Of a stretch of 64,000 nt of DNA, positions 3,578-42,774 are shown piece after piece; within the stretch, counting starts at the first letter, position 1, and each line of letters begins with the position of its first letter. The translations under genes and the position numbers were made by a program. Under the pieces are notes generated by a model. It did no database searches, was not told the DNA's origin, and worked only from the letters and a program-made list of their open reading frames with translations. The stretch comes from an uncultured Clostridia bacterium (GTDB taxonomy: Bacteria; Bacillota; Clostridia; Oscillospirales; JAAYOS01), in assembly GCA_944387575.1 (NCBI GenBank), contig CALXFK010000043.1:3892-67891 (forward strand), read 5' to 3'.

Positions 3578-4768
3578 TTACACAGCCACAACTTCAGAAC
3601 TGACGTTTTCGGACCAGCTCAACTGCTCAACGCAGCACCGTCCCCTGCCGTTCTCCTTTGCTCGGTACAGTATCCGGTCCGTTTCGGAATACAACTGATG
3701 ATATGTACATTTTGGCATATCACATATAGTGACACCGACGCTGCAGCCAACATTCACCGGTCTGTCCTCCCATGTGATCTCATCCATATACTTGACGAGA
3801 TCCTGGCGAAGTGCGTACGCCCGCTCCTCCGTTATAGCGTGGTTATAAATGACGGCAAATTCGTCGCCACCGACCCTACCCAGCATATCAGCATCCGAAA
3901 ACGCTCTTCGGATGGCTTCACTGGTCTCGGTCAGCACGTGGTCGCCACAGGGGTGACCATAGCTGTCATTGATCTTTTTGAACTCATCCATGTCCAGCAA
4001 AAAAAGAGTGATCCCGTTCGATTTCCCTGTTTGTATAACGCCTTCGAGTATCTGCTCAACGCGGTACTCCACCGCAGTCTTATTGAGCAGACCTGTCAGC
4101 GGATCCAATTGTACCAGCTCATGCAATCTTGCGTTCATTTGGAGTATCTGCTTCTGCTGTTTGAGCGTTATTGACGTGTGATGCGCATACGTCATCGACA
4201 CTGAAAATGCCACCACAAATGTGATAGTCATGTTCAGACGGTCTCCCCCGCTAAGCCTCGGCGCCATTATCAGCCAAAACAGCACATACCCGACTACAGA
4301 CTGTAGCACACAGTACCAGGGCGGCTGCTGGATAAACAGTGCCAGTGCAAGCAATGCGGTAGTAATCACGGCGACCCCTGCGTTCGGGTCACGATAAAGA
4401 TCATACGAGTTGAGACCCATATGCCACAAAAGCATCAAATCTGTAGCAGTATACTGTACTATCACCCGGATTTTCGGCGTTGCCCGTTTCAGCCAGACCT
4501 GCAATACCAGCCACAGCACCGCGACGGCTATAAGAGCGCAGTACATCGAAAAATAAATTCGGTTATTGAGCGTGGAAAGACCAGATGCCGACATGAACAG
4601 CACTCGGAAAATATTGAAAAGTTCTATCACAAAGATAATTATACAAATTATCCGCATCGAGAAATCATTCTTCTGTGCCGCTTCTTCCATAAACTCTTGA
4701 CGTATGTATTCGGGGATCTTAAGCCAATTCAAAACTTTACTTTCGAATAAATTTGTATTTTTAGTCAT
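3578..4768 (-). CDS. membrane-bound diguanylate cyclase (multi-TM N-terminus + GGDEF)
   Basis: Hydrophobic N-terminal half, then LDPLTGLLNK...FKKINDSYGHPCGD...GRVGGDEFAVIY with an intact GGDEF. The ATG at 4768 is the likely start. Confidence 0.8.
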   Translation of the reverse strand: MTKNTNLFESKVLNWLKIPEYIRQEFMEEAAQKNDFSMRIICIIIFVIELFNIFRVLFMSASGLSTLNNRIYFSMYCALIAVAVLWLVLQVWLKRATPKIRVIVQYTATDLMLLWHMGLNSYDLYRDPNAGVAVITTALLALALFIQQPPWYCVLQSVVGYVLFWLIMAPRLSGGDRLNMTITFVVAFSVSMTYAHHTSITLKQQKQILQMNARLHELVQLDPLTGLLNKTAVEYRVEQILEGVIQTGKSNGITLFLLDMDEFKKINDSYGHPCGDHVLTETSEAIRRAFSDADMLGRVGGDEFAVIYNHAITEERAYALRQDLVKYMDEITWEDRPVNVGCSVGVTICDMPKCTYHQLYSETDRILYRAKENGRGRCCVEQLSWSENVSSEVVAV

Positions 4769-5077
4769 AGCCGCCAATTCCTTTTCTGTATTGTAGACGT
4801 ATACAAATTCTAAAAATGTCATATTTCAGCCAAAACCAACACAGATCCCGGACTAAAGTTTAATGGGACCCGTCAGGTAAATGATATATCCATTTTAGCA
4901 CACATTTTTATCGAAAACTGACGTTGCGCTAAATTCGTATGACTTTGCACAGATTTTGCGTAGACGACTTCCTCGCCACGTGGTTACGTCGGTCGTGTCC
5001 ACGCAACCACATGGCGCGTACTCCGGACCTAGCATACAGTGTGAGGTCCGGCGAGCAAAGCCTGCCGGACCTCTTTA

Positions 5078-10931: not shown

Positions 10932-11116
10932 AGACAAAACACTCTCAAAAACAAAATCTAAGCTATTATACACTCGAACCTTAAAACATTCTATAAACAA
11001 ATAATAAAAAAACACGTAATTCTAATGCTAATTTTTGTAGGTCATAGCAGCAAAGTCGTGAACCTTCCGGTTCACGGCTCCAACTGATCATAGTTCAGTA
11101 TGTTTTACGACAGGCA

Positions 11117-11590
11117 TCATTGAGAAAACGCATTTTTAAATGCACTCATGATCATGTCACGGTCAAACGGTTTATATACGAATCCCTTTGCGCCAATATT
11201 GTTTGCCTCTTTTATCGCGTCGTCGTACGCAAGAGAGGAAACCATTATTATCTTTGCATCCGGGTTTGCTGACATGATCAGGCGTGCCGTGTCCAGACCA
11301 TCCATGCCTGGCATTATATTAAAGTACTCGGTTGCTGCGTCCTCAACATCCTGTTGTGTCACCTGCTCGGTGTGCAGCACCTTTCTTGCAAGGCGATTAA
11401 ACATCGCAGTGTCCGCAAATAATATCAGAGCATCATCATAACTGCCCTCAAAGGTTGTGTGAACAGTACAGATATCATTTGAAAGTGATGAATCCTGCTC
11501 ATATAGCTGTATCCCAGCGAAACAGCTAGTAATATCCCGCATCGATCTGTTCAATACATTCTCCAACTCACTTTGCACAACCATACTCAC
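11117..11590 (-). CDS. chimeric ORF: CheX-like N-terminal half fused to the C-terminal half of a CheY-type receiver
   Basis: Residues ~40-92 (TVHTTFEGSYDDALILFADTAMFNRLARKVL...DVEDAATEYFNI) follow the CheX pattern, including D-x3-E-x2-N. From NIMPGMDG onward the protein reads as CheY beta3-alpha5 (AKIIMVSS...GAKGFVYKPF). Confidence 0.6.
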   Translation of the reverse strand: MSMVVQSELENVLNRSMRDITSCFAGIQLYEQDSSLSNDICTVHTTFEGSYDDALILFADTAMFNRLARKVLHTEQVTQQDVEDAATEYFNIMPGMDGLDTARLIMSANPDAKIIMVSSLAYDDAIKEANNIGAKGFVYKPFDRDMIMSAFKNAFSQ

Positions 11591-11610: not shown

Positions 11611-12580
11611 TCAGATTTGACCGACAAACCCGTCCACAACCCCGATATTACAGTTCTGTTCCACACTAGAAATGCGTAGTGAGTCATGCCCTATCGTCAC
11701 TGTTGTACCTGGGTATGCCGTGGCACATCGTAAGCGGCAATCGCCATCATATGGAAGCATATTAGCCAAATCCTTGTCAAATATTTCTATTTTCATCTTG
11801 GCTACATATTGATTTAGGCGAAGTTTTGATAATTTTGCCTCAACCGATGGGTCATCACCAAGCCGTTGAAGTCCTTCAATTTTGCGCTGTATTTCTTCTA
11901 TCTCCTTGAGTATCTGCCTGCGCTCCGCCTCTTCACATGGCAGTCCCCCTATAACTATGAGTGTTTGGCGTTCAGCCTTTGATCCAACCGTATTTGCGAA
12001 AACCTCGCGAGACGCGCACAAATTACCGCCGATTACCGCGCAATGACGGGACGCCACATGCTATCGTAAACAGACGAAAATATCTCTGTTCGCATTCGGA
12101 TATTCGCTTGAGCAACTCCCAATCAACACCTGAGGTCACTCCGCGCACTACAAAAAGCTGCTGTAACTGCGTAAGCGTAAGTTCCTTTCCACCGCCAACC
12201 GACGGCAGAAAAAACAACCACGCTGCCATCTCGTCCGATGATACAAATATAAAAGCCTCTTCATCCAGCCGTTTTGGTTGAGCGCCTTTATCCCCGGTCA
12301 GTATTCCTCCCAATTCGCGCATTCTTCTCCACGCCGCACCGGTGAGCAATATTTGCAACCGCTCTATTTCTGCTGAGAGATTACCAACTGGCGGTGTTAC
12401 GTGGATACCTACTTCATCGACCGGGTCCAAATCTATCGAGAGTTCGTTACCCTCCTCACCCAGCCAGAGGTTTCGAAGTATACACAATTCATGGGTAGGC
12501 GGAAACTGAATACTATGTTTTTTGTATCGCTGTTCTCCTCCCCAGCTTTCCATTTGCCGCAATACGCCGCAATTTCCCAT
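11611..12580 (-). pseudogene. FapA/DUF342-family gene split into two overlapping frames (N-part 12023-12580, C-part 11611-12057)
   Basis: The N-ORF carries the DUF342 N-domain (IFVSSDEMAAWLFFLPSVGGGKELT...GVTSGVDWELL). The C-ORF carries the end of the beta-helix, a coiled coil and the C-terminus (IGGNLCASREVFANTVGS...LIVIG...TVTIG). The frames differ and overlap by 35 nt, and the total is well short of typical DUF342 length. Confidence 0.6.
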
Positions 12581-13076: not shown

Positions 13077-13152
13077 TGGTGGGAACAACAGGGCTCGAAC
13101 CTGTGACCCCATGCTTGTAAGGCATGTGCTCTCCCAGCTGAGCTATGCTCCC
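13077..13152 (-). tRNA. tRNA-Val (TAC)
   Basis: RC reads GGGAGCATAGCTCAGCTGGGAGAGC ACATGCCTTACAAGCATG ...GGTTCGAGCCCTGTTGTTCCCACCA. Confidence 0.9.
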
Positions 13153-13203
13153 ATATCCCATAAGAACACTTTGTCGAAGACGCTGTGCCGTGAGACGTTT
13201 GCT

Positions 13204-13232
13204 ATTATATCTAACCCGAGGCGACTTGTCAA
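13204..13232 (-). promoter_or_regulatory. consensus sigma-A promoter of the tRNA Val-Asp-Phe-Cys operon
   Basis: Minus strand reads TTGACA - 17 nt - TATAAT (both hexamers perfect), preceded by an AT-rich UP-like tract. It lies about 50 nt upstream of tRNA-Val. Confidence 0.65.
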
Positions 13233-13295
13233 CACTTATTTTTCAATAATCCAAAATTTTTCCCTCGCCCCCCAAATCCTGCCGCCCACATCTTG

Positions 13296-13802
13296 CTATC
13301 CGAGCAGTATCGCAAGCGCCGCCCCGCCGCAGATGCCGAGCGTAACGTACACCCGTCCCATTGCCCTGTTCTGCTCGTGCGCCGCGCGGTATATCCCCTC
13401 CAGGCGCTCTGTGAGCTCGTCAAACGCATCTTTCTGCTCCTGCTGGTCGTACCTGCCTATCACCGGTGCAAGCGCGTACAGAGCCTCCAGAGCCTCACCA
13501 CGCAGATTCCCGCTGCTGAGCGCCTCCCTCCAGCAGTCAGGCGCGTTCTCATATCCGCGCTCCGCCCCAAGCCGCTCAAACTTAGCAAGAAACGCGCAGG
13601 ACGGAAATTCCGCACGTACTCGGCTCACCGCCGCAGGCAACGGACTGAGCCTGCCGCAAATTTCCCTACGCAGCGCAGCTGCGACCCCTTTAGCCTCGAG
13701 TATTCTCCGCACCGCCGCAGACTTCTCCCACGCCGCAGATACCCCTAAAAACAGACCGGTCGCAGAAACAATCGCTCCCCCGAGTATACTTACCGTCACC
13801 AT
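13296..13802 (-). CDS. spoIIIAB: stage III sporulation protein AB
   Basis: 168 aa with N- and C-terminal TM segments. It sits immediately after, and overlaps, spoIIIAA. The central helical region (LPAAV...CW..AL...L..E...AL..LA..IG.YD) is typical of SpoIIIAB. Confidence 0.8.
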   Translation of the reverse strand: MVTVSILGGAIVSATGLFLGVSAAWEKSAAVRRILEAKGVAAALRREICGRLSPLPAAVSRVRAEFPSCAFLAKFERLGAERGYENAPDCWREALSSGNLRGEALEALYALAPVIGRYDQQEQKDAFDELTERLEGIYRAAHEQNRAMGRVYVTLGICGGAALAILLG

Positions 13803-14701
13803 GAACCCTCCTCAAGTAGATAGCGCCGCCGCCCATCCGCGCGCCGCTCTATGACAACACGGCGTTCAAATATGCGCTCTATCCCCTCGTGCCCTCGCCT
13901 TCTGCGCAGTTCTCCGGTACACGAGGCGTGGATAGTCGCATACAGCGCGACCCCACAGTATGCGATCTTCTCCGCCGCTGCAATGTCAGCCGGGTCGGTT
14001 ATCTCGTCCATCGCAATCACCGCCGGGGACATGGTGCGCAGAAGCATCAGCGCCCCCTCCGCCTTTGGTGCGCCGCAGAGTACGTCGGTCTGTCCTCCAA
14101 GGTCAAATGACGGCGTGTTTGGGTCGTCCCCCCAACCAGAGATCTCCTTGCGTTCGTCTGCGACTCCCACGCGCAGTCCACCCTCAGATATAAGCCGCAC
14201 CAGGTCACGAAGAAGCGAAGTCTTGCCAACTCCAGGTGGCGCAATTATCAAAGTCGAACGCAGAAGTCCTCCCGAGACAAATCGTTTGTAAAGCTCTGTC
14301 CCTATACCCTTGAGTTCCTTTGAAATTCGCACCGAGACCGATGTAAAGCTCCGCATTCCACATATCTGCCCGTTTTCAACTATCGCGGTTCCACACACCC
14401 CTACTCGGTGTCCACCCGGCGCGGTGACAAAACCACGGGCGATGCTGTCGCTCACACTGTGCAGTGAGCCCTGCGCCGCCCGTGCAACCGTATCCAGGAT
14501 ATCGTCCTGTGAAGCTCCACGCTGTAAAGATATTTCCTTTCCGGCGATCACCGCCGACAAACCGAATACCACCCGCAGGCGGAGTTCTTCCACGGCAGAT
14601 TTCTGTTCAGTTGAAAGTGCGCGTGCTGCCGCCCTGAACTTTGTGGGAAGCAGCATTACAGCCTGTTCAAATCTTGTTTCGAGGTCACACATTGAAAGCA
14701 C
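13796..14701 (-). CDS. spoIIIAA: stage III sporulation protein AA (AAA-type ATPase)
   Basis: Walker A IIAPPGVGKTSLLRDL, Walker B VIAMDEI, about 300 aa, followed by spoIIIAB. Confidence 0.85.
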   Translation of the reverse strand: MLSMCDLETRFEQAVMLLPTKFRAAARALSTEQKSAVEELRLRVVFGLSAVIAGKEISLQRGASQDDILDTVARAAQGSLHSVSDSIARGFVTAPGGHRVGVCGTAIVENGQICGMRSFTSVSVRISKELKGIGTELYKRFVSGGLLRSTLIIAPPGVGKTSLLRDLVRLISEGGLRVGVADERKEISGWGDDPNTPSFDLGGQTDVLCGAPKAEGALMLLRTMSPAVIAMDEITDPADIAAAEKIAYCGVALYATIHASCTGELRRRRGHEGIERIFERRVVIERRADGRRRYLLEEGSW

Positions 14702-36518: not shown

Positions 36519-38783
36519 TTACACACCCTGTTCGAAGTTCATGTATTTGCGGCTGAACTCCGCAGCGGCAATAGGCCTGTCATAGAAATAGCCCTGTACA
36601 AAATCGAAGTTCAGTCTCTTGACAAAATCTCTGTCCTCCTGCGTCTCAACGCCCTCTGCAACCGTTGCAATGCCGAACTTTTTGGCAAAAACCACGACCT
36701 GTTCCACTATTGCCTGCCGTTTGACGAGTTCTTCCTCTGAAACCTTGCGCAGAAAACCACGATCCAGTTTCAGCTCGTCGATGTCAAGCTGGTAGAACAT
36801 ATTCAGCGAGGAGTATCCACTGCCGAAGTCGTCCATAGAAATGCGGAACCCTTTTTCATGAAGCGCCTCTATCTGTTTGTTTATCTGCTCAAAATTTTCG
36901 GTGGCAACGCTCTCCAGTATCTCGAGCGTGATAAGAGATGGGGGCACATGATACTTTGCAAGTATCTGAGAGACATTCTCCGGGTAATTGAGGTCGGAGA
37001 ACAGCAGTTTGGACTGATTTATAGATATTGGAGCTGGAGTTATTCCAACATCCATCCACATCCTTATCTGCTTGCAGACCCTCTCCACCATATACATGTC
37101 GAGTTTCAGACAGAATCCGTTTTTCTCAAAGAGCGGTATGAACTCACCCGGCATACGGAAAGAACCGTCCGGATTCTGCCATCTCACAAGAGCTTCCGCG
37201 CCTACGAGCGCATCCGTCTTTAAATTGAACTTAGGCTGAAGGAACAGCTTGAACTCTTTGTTTTGCAGCGCCGCATACATATGACTCTCTATACTATTTT
37301 TACGGCGCACTTCGTCGTGAAGCACATGGTTGTAAAACGCGATACTCTTCTGGTGAGAGTTCTGGATACTCTGCATTGCAAGCAGTGCCCGTTCCCTGTC
37401 CCCGCAAATCGCTATACCGCAATAGGTAGACAGTTCATAGCTGTACTCCCCATAATCCAGGCTCACCCGGCTGATATGGTCTATTATCTTCTGCATACGC
37501 TTTTGAACCAGTTGCTCATCGTTGTCAAGCAGCAGTATATAAAACAGGTCCGCCGTATCTCGGCAAAAGAACTCCCCCGTCTTTAGCATTCCCTCGATCA
37601 TCTCTTTAAGGTAACACAGCACCTTGTCTCCGCGATCTTGCCCAAACAGGTCGTTTATACCCTTGAAATTGTGCACATTCATCGCGACAGTGCTGTAATT
37701 CTTATGCTGACTGGATATTTCATTGAAACGCTGATTGAATCGGATAGTGTTTTCCGCACCTGTCACCTGGTCCTGATACGCTATTCGAATGAGTGCTCTC
37801 ACCGCTTTGCGGAACTGCCTGTACCCCGCATAAAGCAGCCCGTTGACCACGAGCAGCACAAGCAGCACCACCACTCCGGTTATCACCAGGACGCCGCCAA
37901 GCGCCAAATGTGCCCCCCACACAGTGTTGGCACAGAACAAATACCAACCGTTCATCCCAAGCGGCTCCAGATAATAGTGGCACCTCGTTCCCTCGTACCT
38001 GAATTCTCCGAGCACACTCTCCTGCTTGCTCAGCGCTAACCGGGTCTGCTCCTTAGTCTTTTCAGTCAGGTATGAACCGTCATATATTGTGTTCACGTCC
38101 TCCTTTATAAGGGTGTTCTGCGAGCGCACCAAGATCCTGCCCTCGCTGTTTATCAGGTTTATATAACCCGCCCCACCCATTACCGCTTTTCCGTTTGCAA
38201 TGTCGGTAAATATCTCAAGGGTATCGCTCGCCGCCAGTGCACCGACCACCTTGCCATTCTGATAGACCGGGACGGCATAAACGAACAGTTTTTCTCCATA
38301 AACGTCGCTACCAAACATTTTAGAGATGCCGTTATTTCCCTCGAAAGCCATTTCGATCACATCTATGGCGTAAGGATCGCAGTCCTCCAGCGTGATCTCG
38401 GACCTGTTTCCATATGTCGCCGTACTCATGACTCCGTGACCGTCTTTCCAGATATAGAGCATACTGATAAAATCGTTTGCCGAATTGGTAGCCGTGAGGC
38501 TCTGCTCCAACTGATCTTTGTCATTTGCGATGGAACTCACCTCGTATGCCTTTGCGAAGGTAGTCAGTATTTGTATGTTCTTGTCTATCTGTTTGAGTAT
38601 ACGTTCTTTATACTCCTGCGTCTCTATACGCATCTGTTCGTGCGCTGACTCATGAACCGCCTGCATCACATACTGCAAAAGGAACACGCCGACCAGGCAC
38701 AGCACCAAACAACTGACAACAGTTATAACAGTTATGCGTATCAGTTGTTTTCTTAATTTTTTCTCGTCCATCCCTAAATCCAC
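36519..38783 (-). CDS. sensor protein: TM - extracytoplasmic Cache-like domain - TM - degenerate GGDEF - EAL phosphodiesterase
   Basis: The GGDEF-fold region has ...FCRDTADLFYILL in place of RxGGDEF. EAL motifs are intact (EALVRW, INQS, LEILES, DDFGSGYSSL, KLDRGF, AEGVETQED, QGYFY). Confidence 0.85.
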   Translation of the reverse strand: MDLGMDEKKLRKQLIRITVITVVSCLVLCLVGVFLLQYVMQAVHESAHEQMRIETQEYKERILKQIDKNIQILTTFAKAYEVSSIANDKDQLEQSLTATNSANDFISMLYIWKDGHGVMSTATYGNRSEITLEDCDPYAIDVIEMAFEGNNGISKMFGSDVYGEKLFVYAVPVYQNGKVVGALAASDTLEIFTDIANGKAVMGGAGYINLINSEGRILVRSQNTLIKEDVNTIYDGSYLTEKTKEQTRLALSKQESVLGEFRYEGTRCHYYLEPLGMNGWYLFCANTVWGAHLALGGVLVITGVVVLLVLLVVNGLLYAGYRQFRKAVRALIRIAYQDQVTGAENTIRFNQRFNEISSQHKNYSTVAMNVHNFKGINDLFGQDRGDKVLCYLKEMIEGMLKTGEFFCRDTADLFYILLLDNDEQLVQKRMQKIIDHISRVSLDYGEYSYELSTYCGIAICGDRERALLAMQSIQNSHQKSIAFYNHVLHDEVRRKNSIESHMYAALQNKEFKLFLQPKFNLKTDALVGAEALVRWQNPDGSFRMPGEFIPLFEKNGFCLKLDMYMVERVCKQIRMWMDVGITPAPISINQSKLLFSDLNYPENVSQILAKYHVPPSLITLEILESVATENFEQINKQIEALHEKGFRISMDDFGSGYSSLNMFYQLDIDELKLDRGFLRKVSEEELVKRQAIVEQVVVFAKKFGIATVAEGVETQEDRDFVKRLNFDFVQGYFYDRPIAAAEFSRKYMNFEQGV

Positions 38784-38985
38784 ATTCCTCTCTGCTGCCT
38801 TCCGACCATCCTCCTAGGTCGTGATGGGATAACCGCAACTACCCATCCGCCCCCTCCCATATCACCCAGCATACTTACCAAGTTTCAATATACAGCATTA
38901 CACCAGCAAAATACAACAGTGAAATCTTAAAAATTTTGTATTTTTAGCTGTTAAACTACGAAATTCTGCACGATCAAGCGACCAA

Positions 38986-40824
38986 TCAGGTATTGCCGCT
39001 GGCAGACGCTCCCGCAGCCTCGTGCTGTGACAGTATCTTACGCTTGACCTCCCAGCGCGGCATTGGATGGTAAAACCGAAAACCCTGTATTACATCACAG
39101 TTTATCTTCTGCAATGCCTCTACCTGGCTGTCCTCCTCAACACCCTCTGCAAGGATTGTCATGTTGAGCTCATGACCAACCTGTATCATCCCCTTAAGCA
39201 CCGACATGCCGCTCGGGGTCATCATATGGTCGATGAGACTTTTCCCCAGTTTAATGCCGTTGATGGAGTATTTCTGCAAATCGTAAAAGGAAGTAAACCC
39301 CTCTCCGAAGTCGTCAAGGACCACCTGGACACCGTATTCTTGCAGCAAAGTGACGTTCTTCTGTATCTGCAGAACGTTTTCCACGTCCACACTTTCGGTG
39401 ATCTCCATTATGAGCAACTCTCTCGGAAAGGTATATCTGTTGATTATATTCTTTACATTTTTTACAAATTCGGGAGCAACAAATGTCTCCCGCGAGAAAT
39501 TGCACGAGATAAAGAAGGTGTCCACATTCTCATGCAGCAGTTCTTCCAAGAACCCGCACACCTCCTCCAGACAGTAGTAGTCGAGGCGGCTTATAGACTT
39601 TTCCCTCTCCATCAACGGAACGAACTCGCCCGATAGCAGCACGCCCCTCTGCGGATGGTTCCACCGCGACAGTGCCTCTCCCCCGACAACATCAAACGTA
39701 TGGGCATCTACATAGAACTGGAGATACAACTGGAACTCATGCTTCGAAAACGCATCGTCTATACTCGCCTGCAACAATTTTTCCTGCTGGATCCGCTCCA
39801 TCATTTCATTAGAGCACAGCACGTAGTCCTTCGCAGTCCGCTGAGCTTCATATGCACCTTGCAAGGCGTAGAACAGCATCTCGTTAAGATCCCAGTCCTG
39901 CTTTTTCAGCGGGTACACGCCCACATATATATCCACTTCAAGCAATTTCCAGCACTGCTCCGCATATTGGCGCACCCGCTCAAGGACAGGTTTAAGCCAC
40001 TCCTCCGTTCCGAGCGTACCGCTGGTAAACCGGAGCATCGCAAACCCTCGTTCGGAAACCCGGGCGAGGATATCGGTATCAGCCGCGTTCTCACGCAGGA
40101 ACGATGCACATTTCGAAACGAATTCGTCGGTCTCCTTTCCCCCGATAATCCGCCTGAGGTGATCGGTGTCCACATAGAAATAGAGAAGCTGATACAGCAC
40201 CTTGTTCTTATCGTTTACATACTGCCTGTAATACCGCTGAAACTGTTCCCCGTTTCCAAGTCCGGTGACCTCGTCTGTGTGTGCCTCGAGCCACAAGTTC
40301 CGCAGCCGTTTCCTGAAAGCGCGGACGAGCAGCGCTATCGTGCAGCCGAGCAGTACGACGACAAGCGCGAGCGATGCAATGACAAGGTGCAGGCTGTGCT
40401 CGTTATTTGGCGCGTCTCCGGCAGAGAGCAGCGCCCCGGTTATTTTCCCGGCGGGCAGAGAGGACAGAAAACCGGTCAGTTCCGCTCTGAATGTATCCGG
40501 GGTGGCGTCGGTAAAGTACAGGTAATATACCTGCTCCTCCCCTCCCATCGACGCGGTGAACAGAACGACCGAGCCGTCGTTTTCCGGAATCCTGTCGCCC
40601 TGCGCGTACCCGGACAGGAGGTCCACCTGATTGTTTACCGCGTAATCGGCACGATGGTCATCGCCGTCGGTTCCGTAATAAACGATGTCGTACCCGCTCT
40701 GCTCGGAAAATTCGCGCAGCAGCTGTGGGATGACCCCCTCGAACGTCTGCGTATCCCGGTCAAAATACTCCAGCGGGTACCCGTCCGGGTTTCCGGCGAC
40801 ATATATCAGAGTTTTCTGATTCAC
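38986..40824 (-). CDS. periplasmic-binding-like domain - TM - degenerate GGDEF - EAL phosphodiesterase
   Basis: N-terminus IYVAGNPDGYPLEYFD... resembles a type-3 solute-binding domain. The GGDEF site reads ARVSERGFAMLRF. EAL motifs are present (EALSRW, CNFS, MEITES, DDFGEGFTSF, AEGVEED, QGFRF). The GTG start lies 3 nt after the upstream stop. Confidence 0.8.
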   Translation of the reverse strand: MNQKTLIYVAGNPDGYPLEYFDRDTQTFEGVIPQLLREFSEQSGYDIVYYGTDGDDHRADYAVNNQVDLLSGYAQGDRIPENDGSVVLFTASMGGEEQVYYLYFTDATPDTFRAELTGFLSSLPAGKITGALLSAGDAPNNEHSLHLVIASLALVVVLLGCTIALLVRAFRKRLRNLWLEAHTDEVTGLGNGEQFQRYYRQYVNDKNKVLYQLLYFYVDTDHLRRIIGGKETDEFVSKCASFLRENAADTDILARVSERGFAMLRFTSGTLGTEEWLKPVLERVRQYAEQCWKLLEVDIYVGVYPLKKQDWDLNEMLFYALQGAYEAQRTAKDYVLCSNEMMERIQQEKLLQASIDDAFSKHEFQLYLQFYVDAHTFDVVGGEALSRWNHPQRGVLLSGEFVPLMEREKSISRLDYYCLEEVCGFLEELLHENVDTFFISCNFSRETFVAPEFVKNVKNIINRYTFPRELLIMEITESVDVENVLQIQKNVTLLQEYGVQVVLDDFGEGFTSFYDLQKYSINGIKLGKSLIDHMMTPSGMSVLKGMIQVGHELNMTILAEGVEEDSQVEALQKINCDVIQGFRFYHPMPRWEVKRKILSQHEAAGASASGNT

Positions 40825-41370: not shown

Positions 41371-42774
41371 TTATTTGAACTGTATTTGTTTTCGCTCGAT
41401 GCGACCCCAGGAGTGTTTCTTTTTCTTGTATCCGAATAGTGCCGTGGTCCGTATCCACGCAAGTATCATTCTCAGACAGGATACCTCGACCAAACATAGC
41501 ACAATCGCTTTGACAAAGTCGGAAAATGTTAGCTTCATATCAATCGTATGTACCCGGGCAAAGAAAGCTGTGAGCGACAGTATCGCGGAATATACAACGT
41601 ATGTCACGTAAAACAGGATCATGAACGGCACGTTGATGAGGTCGACCCAGAACGCGAGCGCCACCGTCAGGATGCCAAACACCTCAATGTACGGCGACAG
41701 CAGCTCATATATCAGGAAATACAGGTAGGACACCATCCCGACAAGTCCGTACTTGTGGTTTATGAACATGCGCCTGTGCATCACCATGCTCTGGAACAGC
41801 CCTATGTGCCAACGTCTGCGCTGCTTGCAGAGGTCTTTCATCTTCTCCGGCACCTGTGTCCAGCAGACCGCATCGGTGGCGTATCGTATGCGGTACGGTA
41901 TCCCGTTTTCACGGCAGTAGGCATGCATCTTGACAACAAGTTCCATGTCCTCCCCCATCGTCGAGGCGTCGTACCCACCGGCGTCTATTACCACATTCTT
42001 CTTGAAGAGTCCAAATGCGCCCGAAATTATAATGCTTCCGTTGAACCGGTCGAACAGTATGCGCGCGGCAAGAAACGACCGATCATATTCCAGGACCTGC
42101 ATGCTCGGTATTATCTTTTTCGGCATGTGGTACGAGACCACCCTGCCGTTCTTTATCTCGGCTCCGTTGCATGGGCGGACTACACCTCCAACCGCCACCA
42201 CGCGACTATCCTCTAGCACTGGTCGCACTATCTTTTCAAGCGAGTCGTACTGCAACACCGAGTCCGCGTCCATACAGATGAAGTACGGGTATTTGGATGC
42301 GTTTATCCCCATGTTCAGCGCGTCCGCCTTTCCGCCGTTCTTCTTGCGGATGAGCGTTATCGGTACCTTCCACTCGTAGCTCTCGTAGACTGCCTCCTCC
42401 GGCTGGCAGGGCACCTTCCTCTGTATTGGACGGCTTATCGCCTTCATGTTGAACGCCTCACACACCACTTTTGAGGTATTGTCCTTCGAACCGTCGTCCA
42501 CTATCACTATCTCGTACAGCTTGTACTCAAGCGCAAGCAATGACCGGATGCTCGCCTCTATCGTCACTTCCTCGTTATATGCCGGAACCACTATCGTGAC
42601 CGGAACATAGTACTCGCCCAGGAGTTCGCTTTTCAGTCTGTTTCTTCTCTTCATCTGGTAGAGCATAGACGACCCCACCGTCACCGCAAGAAACAGAAAG
42701 CTCGCATACCCTATCATGTACAGTATGAAGAAAACGCCTACATACTCAAAGAACTGCTTATATGCGTCCATCAC
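41371..42774 (-). CDS. processive family-2 glycosyltransferase (IcaA/PgaC/cellulose-synthase-like)
   Basis: VPAYNEE, VDDGSKDNT, CMDADS (DxD), GAFGLFKK and QRRRWHIG (QxxRW), with N- and C-terminal TM helices. Confidence 0.85.
   Translation of the reverse strand: MMDAYKQFFEYVGVFFILYMIGYASFLFLAVTVGSSMLYQMKRRNRLKSELLGEYYVPVTIVVPAYNEEVTIEASIRSLLALEYKLYEIVIVDDGSKDNTSKVVCEAFNMKAISRPIQRKVPCQPEEAVYESYEWKVPITLIRKKNGGKADALNMGINASKYPYFICMDADSVLQYDSLEKIVRPVLEDSRVVAVGGVVRPCNGAEIKNGRVVSYHMPKKIIPSMQVLEYDRSFLAARILFDRFNGSIIISGAFGLFKKNVVIDAGGYDASTMGEDMELVVKMHAYCRENGIPYRIRYATDAVCWTQVPEKMKDLCKQRRRWHIGLFQSMVMHRRMFINHKYGLVGMVSYLYFLIYELLSPYIEVFGILTVALAFWVDLINVPFMILFYVTYVVYSAILSLTAFFARVHTIDMKLTFSDFVKAIVLCLVEVSCLRMILAWIRTTALFGYKKKKHSWGRIERKQIQFK

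Follow-up and report, generated by a model that had tools for sequence, protein, structure and literature searches.

A cheX-cheY hybrid reading frame as the very probable remnant of a recent 441-bp deletion in a decaying operon

Within the 64-kb stretch of DNA analyzed here (hereafter the window), one open reading frame joins the beginning of a CheX-type protein to the end of a CheY-type receiver. We consider it very probable that this hybrid is a deletion-made remnant of cheX and cheY, a strain-level pseudogene, present in some strains of a gut Clostridia species, that goes back to the recent loss of 441 bp in a decaying operon. The first-pass annotation of this DNA had described an open reading frame that is half CheX and half CheY, and this composition is real, as Pfam assigns residues 1-92 to the N-terminal part of CheX and residues 93-157 to the C-terminal part of CheY. 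The hybrid is not a member of the CheX family, but a receiver-domain fragment only. The coordinates of the features discussed below are given in Table 1.

Table 1. Remnant genes and deletion junctions at the fapA-cheX-cheY locus (window positions).
Feature	Position	Strand	Details
Chimeric ORF cheX'-'cheY	11117..11590	(-)	157 aa, GTG start; ORF call and Pfam
cheX 5' remnant	11315..11590	(-)	Codons 1-92 of 155; ends at the junction
cheY 3' remnant	11117..11314	(-)	Last 65 codons and stop
Junction of the 441-bp in-frame deletion	11314..11315	(-)	TTTAATATA / ATGCCAGGC; DNA alignment, same in L004
fapA 5' remnant	12040..12580	(-)	FapA residues ~25-189 of the 552-aa orthologue; frame crosses the junction and stops at 12023
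fapA 3' remnant	11611..12039	(-)	FapA residues ~408-549; frame differs from that of the 5' remnant
Junction of the frame-breaking fapA deletion	12039..12040	(-)	~220 codons lost; homology to L001/L002 stops here

The ancestor of the strain carried a fapA-cheX-cheY cassette of the kind that related Oscillospirales have conserved. One deletion of 441 bp, with bluntly joined ends, kept the reading frame by chance (1 in 3), and a separate deletion of ~220 codons broke that of fapA, which lies upstream in the cassette. The cassette thus appears to be decaying in this lineage, leaving a cluster of pseudogenes.

The two parts of the hybrid differ in how clearly they are recognized by profile searches. 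The CheX family (PF13690) is matched by residues 44-95, corresponding to profile positions 4-55 of 94 (E 1.2e-3), and the score of 19.3 bits lies below the gathering score of 27 for this family. The receiver family (Response_reg, PF00072) is matched by residues 93-151, corresponding to profile positions 52-110 of 111 (E 5e-11), with 43.2 bits against a gathering score of 30.2, though with partial coverage of the profile only. Both matches are partial and abut one another, in agreement with the proposal that the sequence switches to CheY right after the asparagine of CheX, and the junction in the DNA (Table 1) lies at this point. Searches of NCBIfam and of PDB sequences with the hybrid recovered the receiver half only, from residue 91-93 and aligned to CheY from approximately position 55 onward. 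The weak (sub-gathering) CheX match was validated independently via an intact protein of 155 aa (P0002), from which residues 1-92 of the hybrid differ at one position. P0002 scores above the CheX gathering score (30.7 bits), as does P0005 (36.9 bits). The search of PDB sequences returned no CheX, T. maritima CheX included, either with the hybrid or with a profile built from 11 intact CheX relatives, and the CheX membership of the parent was consequently established via Pfam and fold comparison. Just 5' of the hybrid reading frame, the Shine-Dalgarno-like sequence GGAAGGTGG is that of cheX itself.

The parents of the hybrid could be traced in protein and DNA collections. A word-indexed search of a 5.8-billion-protein collection returned 88 matches in two classes, CheX-only or CheY-only. 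Matches of the CheX class are full-length (155-162 aa) and align with no more than the first 57-69% of the hybrid query, and those of the CheY class are full-length as well, mostly ~120-125 aa, and align with the last ~38-49% only. The only returned match across both halves (P0001) is 99% identical and represents the same allele. The intact 155-aa CheX P0002 reads ...ATEYFNIVCGRIVAGL..., and an intact CheY of 116 aa (P0003) reads ...DIVTMDILMPGMDGLD....

In metagenome contigs that belong to the same species (99.4-99.7% identity), cheX (155 aa) and cheY (116 aa) are separate and intact and occupy this locus. Two contigs with intact cheX (L001 and L002) correspond to window positions 12039-11315 in a 725-bp blastn block (99.45%) and diverge beyond it, and positions 255-834 of a contig with intact cheY (L003) correspond to window positions 11314-10735 (99.66%). 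The L003 match extends past the intergenic region downstream of cheY and into the adjoining gene, of the sulfatase family, which places the intact allele at the same chromosomal locus and not at that of a paralogue. At their ends, L001 and L002 share 57 identical nt with the beginning of L003, and this overlap allowed the intact locus to be reconstructed, the resulting reference being stitched from contigs of different samples. Compared with it, the window lacks exactly 441 nt, namely codons 93-155 of cheX (63 codons), the stop codon, a spacer of 96 nt which contains the ribosome-binding site of cheY, and the first 51 codons of cheY. The frame is kept because 441 equals 147 × 3. The junction reads ...GAGTACTTTAATATA / ATGCCAGGCATG... 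and is blunt, with 0 nt of microhomology and no filler when the longest matching cheX prefix and the longest matching cheY suffix are joined. The deleted DNA was sought elsewhere in the 64-kb window and was not found there.

The deletion is a recent one, and the species is polymorphic for it. A contig from a different sample and a different assembler (L004) contains the identical cheX-cheY junction and is colinear with the window over 3272 bp (99.69%), and intact alleles occur at ~99.5% identity in three other samples. Between the hybrid and each parent there is a single amino-acid difference (R69 versus K in CheX, A121 versus E in CheY), and at both positions the residue in the window is that of the other relatives retrieved. 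One difference per parent fits a very young event and gives no positive sign of relaxed constraint; derived degenerative substitutions are absent from the hybrid. An exact 24-mer of the cheX side of the junction had no match in the genome-contig or metagenome-contig collections.

In the strain with intact cheY, the usual N terminus of the protein (MSKKIMVVDD in relatives) is disrupted at L003 positions 85-104, where ATG AAA AAA CAG TAA is out of frame with a later ATG GTG GTA GAT GAT. As a result of this mismatch, the cheY call begins at MVVDD. The disruption probably goes back to a single-base change in the A-run.

The upstream gene of the operon, fapA, is broken by a second deletion. Relative to its orthologue, the window copy lacks residues ~190-407, and the 553 nt of L001/L002 that lie upstream of the fapA junction (12040/12039) are absent from the whole window. 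An independent contig (L024) is colinear across this junction. The left breakpoint and the size of the deletion are defined relative to orthologues at 40-55% identity only. No unbroken fapA was seen in the same-species contigs covering this gene, of which L002 and L004 span only parts, and protein searches for a full-length FapA of the same species returned only truncated or partial sequences (P0089, P0090).

Two further irregularities were observed in fapA. In L001, which carries intact cheX, a frameshifting gap of ~28 nt relative to orthologues is located at positions ~200-245 (VKPVL...VKFIGDIHIH); it rests on one contig of 1.85-fold coverage. Judged from this gap, inactivation of fapA in the species may predate the larger deletions. 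At L024 positions 95-144, compared with window positions ~12555-12565, ~50 extra nt are found near the start of fapA, with an overlap of 11 nt between the flanking matches, which has the appearance of a polymorphism by a small duplication or insertion.

The separate arrangement of the three genes is widely conserved. All 19 relative loci (L005-L023, Oscillospirales) contain fapA, cheX and cheY as separate, complete genes in the same order, in Neglecta, Flavonifractor, Lawsonibacter, Angelakisella, Acutalibacter, Gemmiger, Allofournierella and several unnamed MAGs, examples being L005 (8312-10957) and L015 (2303-4913). The question raised by the first-pass annotation, whether the fusion is conserved in relatives, is thereby answered in the negative, as only P0001 spans both halves. 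The genes encode FapA of ~500-610 aa, CheX of 155-162 aa and CheY of ~122-125 aa, and the gap between the cheX and cheY matches is ~65-115 nt. FapA of this triad consists of FapA_N and FapA/DUF342 (~550 aa), and the CheX proteins are divergent, with no PDB match by sequence and a clear CheX fold. No other che or fla genes adjoin the triad at the loci with neighbors listed, and the rest of the 64-kb window contains no other chemotaxis or flagellar gene. One carrier of the triad, Angelakisella massiliensis, is motile (PMC5294735). Literature searches on a FapA/CheX/CheY triad and on DUF342 with response regulators returned nothing relevant. The stand-alone triad conserved in many Oscillospirales represents more interesting biology than the hybrid. 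An ancestral fusion from which the separate genes were derived was considered and rejected: all other genera examined have separate genes, and the segment missing from the window contains a stop codon along with a spacer and a ribosome-binding site.

What the deletion removed can be read from a model of the intact parent. The AlphaFold2 (AF2) model of the parent CheX, computed from an alignment of 11 sequences (pLDDT 85.7, pTM 0.82), contains helices at residues 3-25, 61-72 and 79-105, the last of them long, and strands at 29-31, 40-48, 53-60, 115-118, 127-137 and 142-150. Helix 79-105 carries the motif D84-x3-E88-x2-N91. In Foldseek comparisons, this model matches 3HM4, 6VPW, 1SQU/1XKO and chain B of 3HZH with TM scores of 0.67-0.75 at 14-18% identity. 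Residues 1-92 of the hybrid are thus derived from a gene with the fold of the CheX proteins of the CheC/CheX/FliY family (T. maritima 1XKO/1SQU, B. burgdorferi 3HZH). The close likeness to T. maritima CheX described previously was overstated, as even the intact parents are divergent from it, with 16-17% identity in the structural alignment of the parent model.

Relative to this fold, the hybrid retains 92 of 155 residues, i.e., helices 3-25 and 61-72, three strands and the first 14 of the 27 residues of the motif helix, which is cut at residue 92, one residue after the asparagine. The other 13 residues of this helix and strands 115-118, 127-137 and 142-150 (three of the six predicted) are missing, which leaves the CheX fold incomplete. 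The phosphatase motif D-x3-E-x2-N is kept in the hybrid, as had been noted, with D84, E88 and N91 all present. The signature of the CheX active site, D/S-x3-E-x2-N-x22-P, reportedly described by Park et al. in 2004, extends further. The proline at N+23 (P114), invariant in the 11 intact relatives, is deleted from the hybrid, in which the nearest proline is at N+19, and with the proline and the intact helix gone, the complete signature is absent despite the three retained residues. The CheX asparagine together with an acidic residue leads to dephosphorylation when inserted into the active site of phosphorylated CheY (PMC3035606). In the hybrid, the enzyme half and the substrate half are both incomplete.

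On the receiver side, residues 93-157 resemble CheY (T. maritima 1TMY/4QYW; 6ER7), in an alignment that begins at the M-P-G-M-D-G loop and extends to the C terminus. The hybrid keeps alpha3-beta4-alpha4-beta5-alpha5 and lacks beta1-alpha1-beta2-alpha2-beta3; the first-pass annotation was right that this part of CheY, from beta1 to beta3, and the C-terminal half of CheX are missing. Both the Ser/Thr and the Lys of the receiver are present, as S118 (after beta4) and K140 (after beta5) fall in invariant columns of the alignment. The acidic Mg-binding DD pair after beta1 is absent, the parental N terminus MVVDD being deleted, and so is the phospho-acceptor Asp at the end of beta3, the codon of which lies within the deleted 441 bp (T-M-D-I-L-M-P-G in the parent versus Y-F-N-I-M-P-G in the hybrid). 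Without the acceptor Asp and the Mg-binding acidic pocket, the hybrid cannot be phosphorylated and hence cannot act as a phospho-switch. N91 had been placed exactly at the position of this Asp, whereas it is one residue out of register: the spacing from Asn to Pro is 3 in the hybrid (N-I-M-P) and that from Asp to Pro is 4 in the parent CheY (D-I-L-M-P). When the hybrid was aligned by MAFFT with homologues of CheX and CheY, either full-length or trimmed, its halves were misaligned.

Because catalytic and core elements are missing and fapA is broken, the polypeptide, if made, would be expected to be non-functional, and it is probably unstable. As a counterpoint, the reading frame is open and in frame and the ribosome-binding site of cheX is kept, so that translation is possible. 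Chimeric reading frames left by deletions during gene decay are a well-known class. The hybrid resembles them in having intact conspecific parents at the same locus, colinear flanks, a single junction and a disrupted operon neighbor. The only oddity compared with the usual cases is that both breakpoints are located 1-3 residues from two catalytic residues, which we infer to be a coincidence.

Two rival explanations concern the junction itself. An artefact of assembly or sequencing, joining reads of cheX and cheY, might be suspected from the fact that L001 and L002 end, and L003 begins, in the cheX-cheY spacer, as this suggests branching of the assembly graph. The chance of such an error is nevertheless close to negligible. 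L004, from another sample, has the identical junction with 3.3 kb of colinear flank and thereby identifies it as a real, inherited allele; in addition, the fapA junction recurs independently in L024, and the join is exactly in frame with no repeat that could mislead an assembler. The first-pass annotation had offered a recombination scar at a short shared motif (N/D-I-x-x-G) as one possible origin. The scar is genuine, as a deletion between adjacent genes, but the blunt junction speaks against the motif-based mechanism. Recombination or replication slippage at this motif, by which the position at the active sites would have a mechanistic cause, could draw on an ATAT shared by N-I (AAT ATA) and D-I (GAT ATC) a few nt from the breakpoints. 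However, the cheX prefix and the cheY suffix meet with 0 nt of overlap, and the similarity flanking the breakpoints ends at 4 nt. An exchange at ATAT would moreover yield AAT ATC CTT ATG (N-I-L-M), whereas the window reads AAT ATA ATG (N-I-M). We therefore regard this origin as very unlikely.

Other rivals grant the hybrid a role as a protein. That it is functional, its two halves packing into a coherent new fold or the protein interfering with a CheY pathway as a decoy or dominant-negative, appears very unlikely to us. In its favor, the open frame is preceded by a Shine-Dalgarno-like sequence, the hybrid still has E88 and N91 from CheX as well as S118 and K140 from CheY, and two samples at least contain the allele. 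Laboratory-made chimeras in which part of CheY is reused (PDB 2LLE and 3CWO) can reportedly fold, and the CheY segment in them overlaps that of the hybrid (query residues 92-140 were matched). Unlike the hybrid, 2LLE and 3CWO are deliberate CheY/HisF constructs, as the molecule names given by the depositors indicate. Their design reportedly joined beta-alpha units that are structurally compatible, and folding is reported to have been demonstrated, whereas the folds of CheX and CheY are unrelated, and nothing here points to folding of the hybrid. Its AF2 model is of low confidence (pLDDT 55, pTM 0.42), though this comes from a single-sequence run and constitutes weak evidence. The fusion is seen only at ≥99% identity to itself and at none of the 19 relative loci, and conspecific strains hold two intact genes; within the hybrid's own operon the upstream fapA is frame-broken, and the deletion has removed the acceptor Asp and the acidic pocket together with three CheX strands and half of the catalytic helix. 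An in-frame outcome also has a prior of one in three. The idea of a genuinely new fused fold, put forward earlier, finds no support in a fusion confined to its own allele, next to a broken fapA and with low AF2 confidence. A related reading holds that the hybrid is translated from the start signals of cheX and is not inert, its CheX and CheY half-sheets pairing or its alpha4-beta5-alpha5 face binding CheY partners. If true, it would be a natural, strain-polymorphic new protein made from fragments of two unrelated folds, yet we consider this extremely unlikely.

With the deletion-made remnant as the preferred reading, the open reading frame should be annotated as a cheX/cheY deletion remnant and not as a response regulator, and fapA as a pseudogene. 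The locus provides a base-resolved case of strain-level operon decay, in which the ancestral and the deleted alleles are both present in public metagenome assemblies, and it illustrates that chance can place a junction at two active sites in a way that looks designed. Its significance beyond correct annotation is small, as it reflects ordinary gene decay and no new protein design.

Several observations were made elsewhere in the window. Just past the stop codon of the hybrid reading frame, at 11056-11077, the minus strand contains the inverted repeat CGTGAACC-GGAA-GGTTCACG, which was not called by the terminator scan because no T-run follows the repeat. Within 13077-14701, spoIIIAA (13796-14701) and spoIIIAB (13296-13802) are encoded on the (-) strand. 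Directly after spoIIIAB, a perfect sigma-70 consensus promoter (TTGACA-17-TATAAT, 13232-13204) is found, followed by a cluster of tRNA genes for Val, Asp, Phe and Cys (13152-12753). Missing from this position are the usual spoIIIAC-AH genes, which may be another sign of gene loss or rearrangement. Genes for c-di-GMP turnover are located at 3578-4822 and 36519-40824 and encode one GGDEF and two GGDEF-EAL proteins, one of the latter with a dCache sensor. They adjoin a family-2 glycosyltransferase gene (41371-42774), after which a run of same-strand reading frames extends over ~42.8-49.1 kb, and together this region possibly constitutes a c-di-GMP-controlled exopolysaccharide locus.
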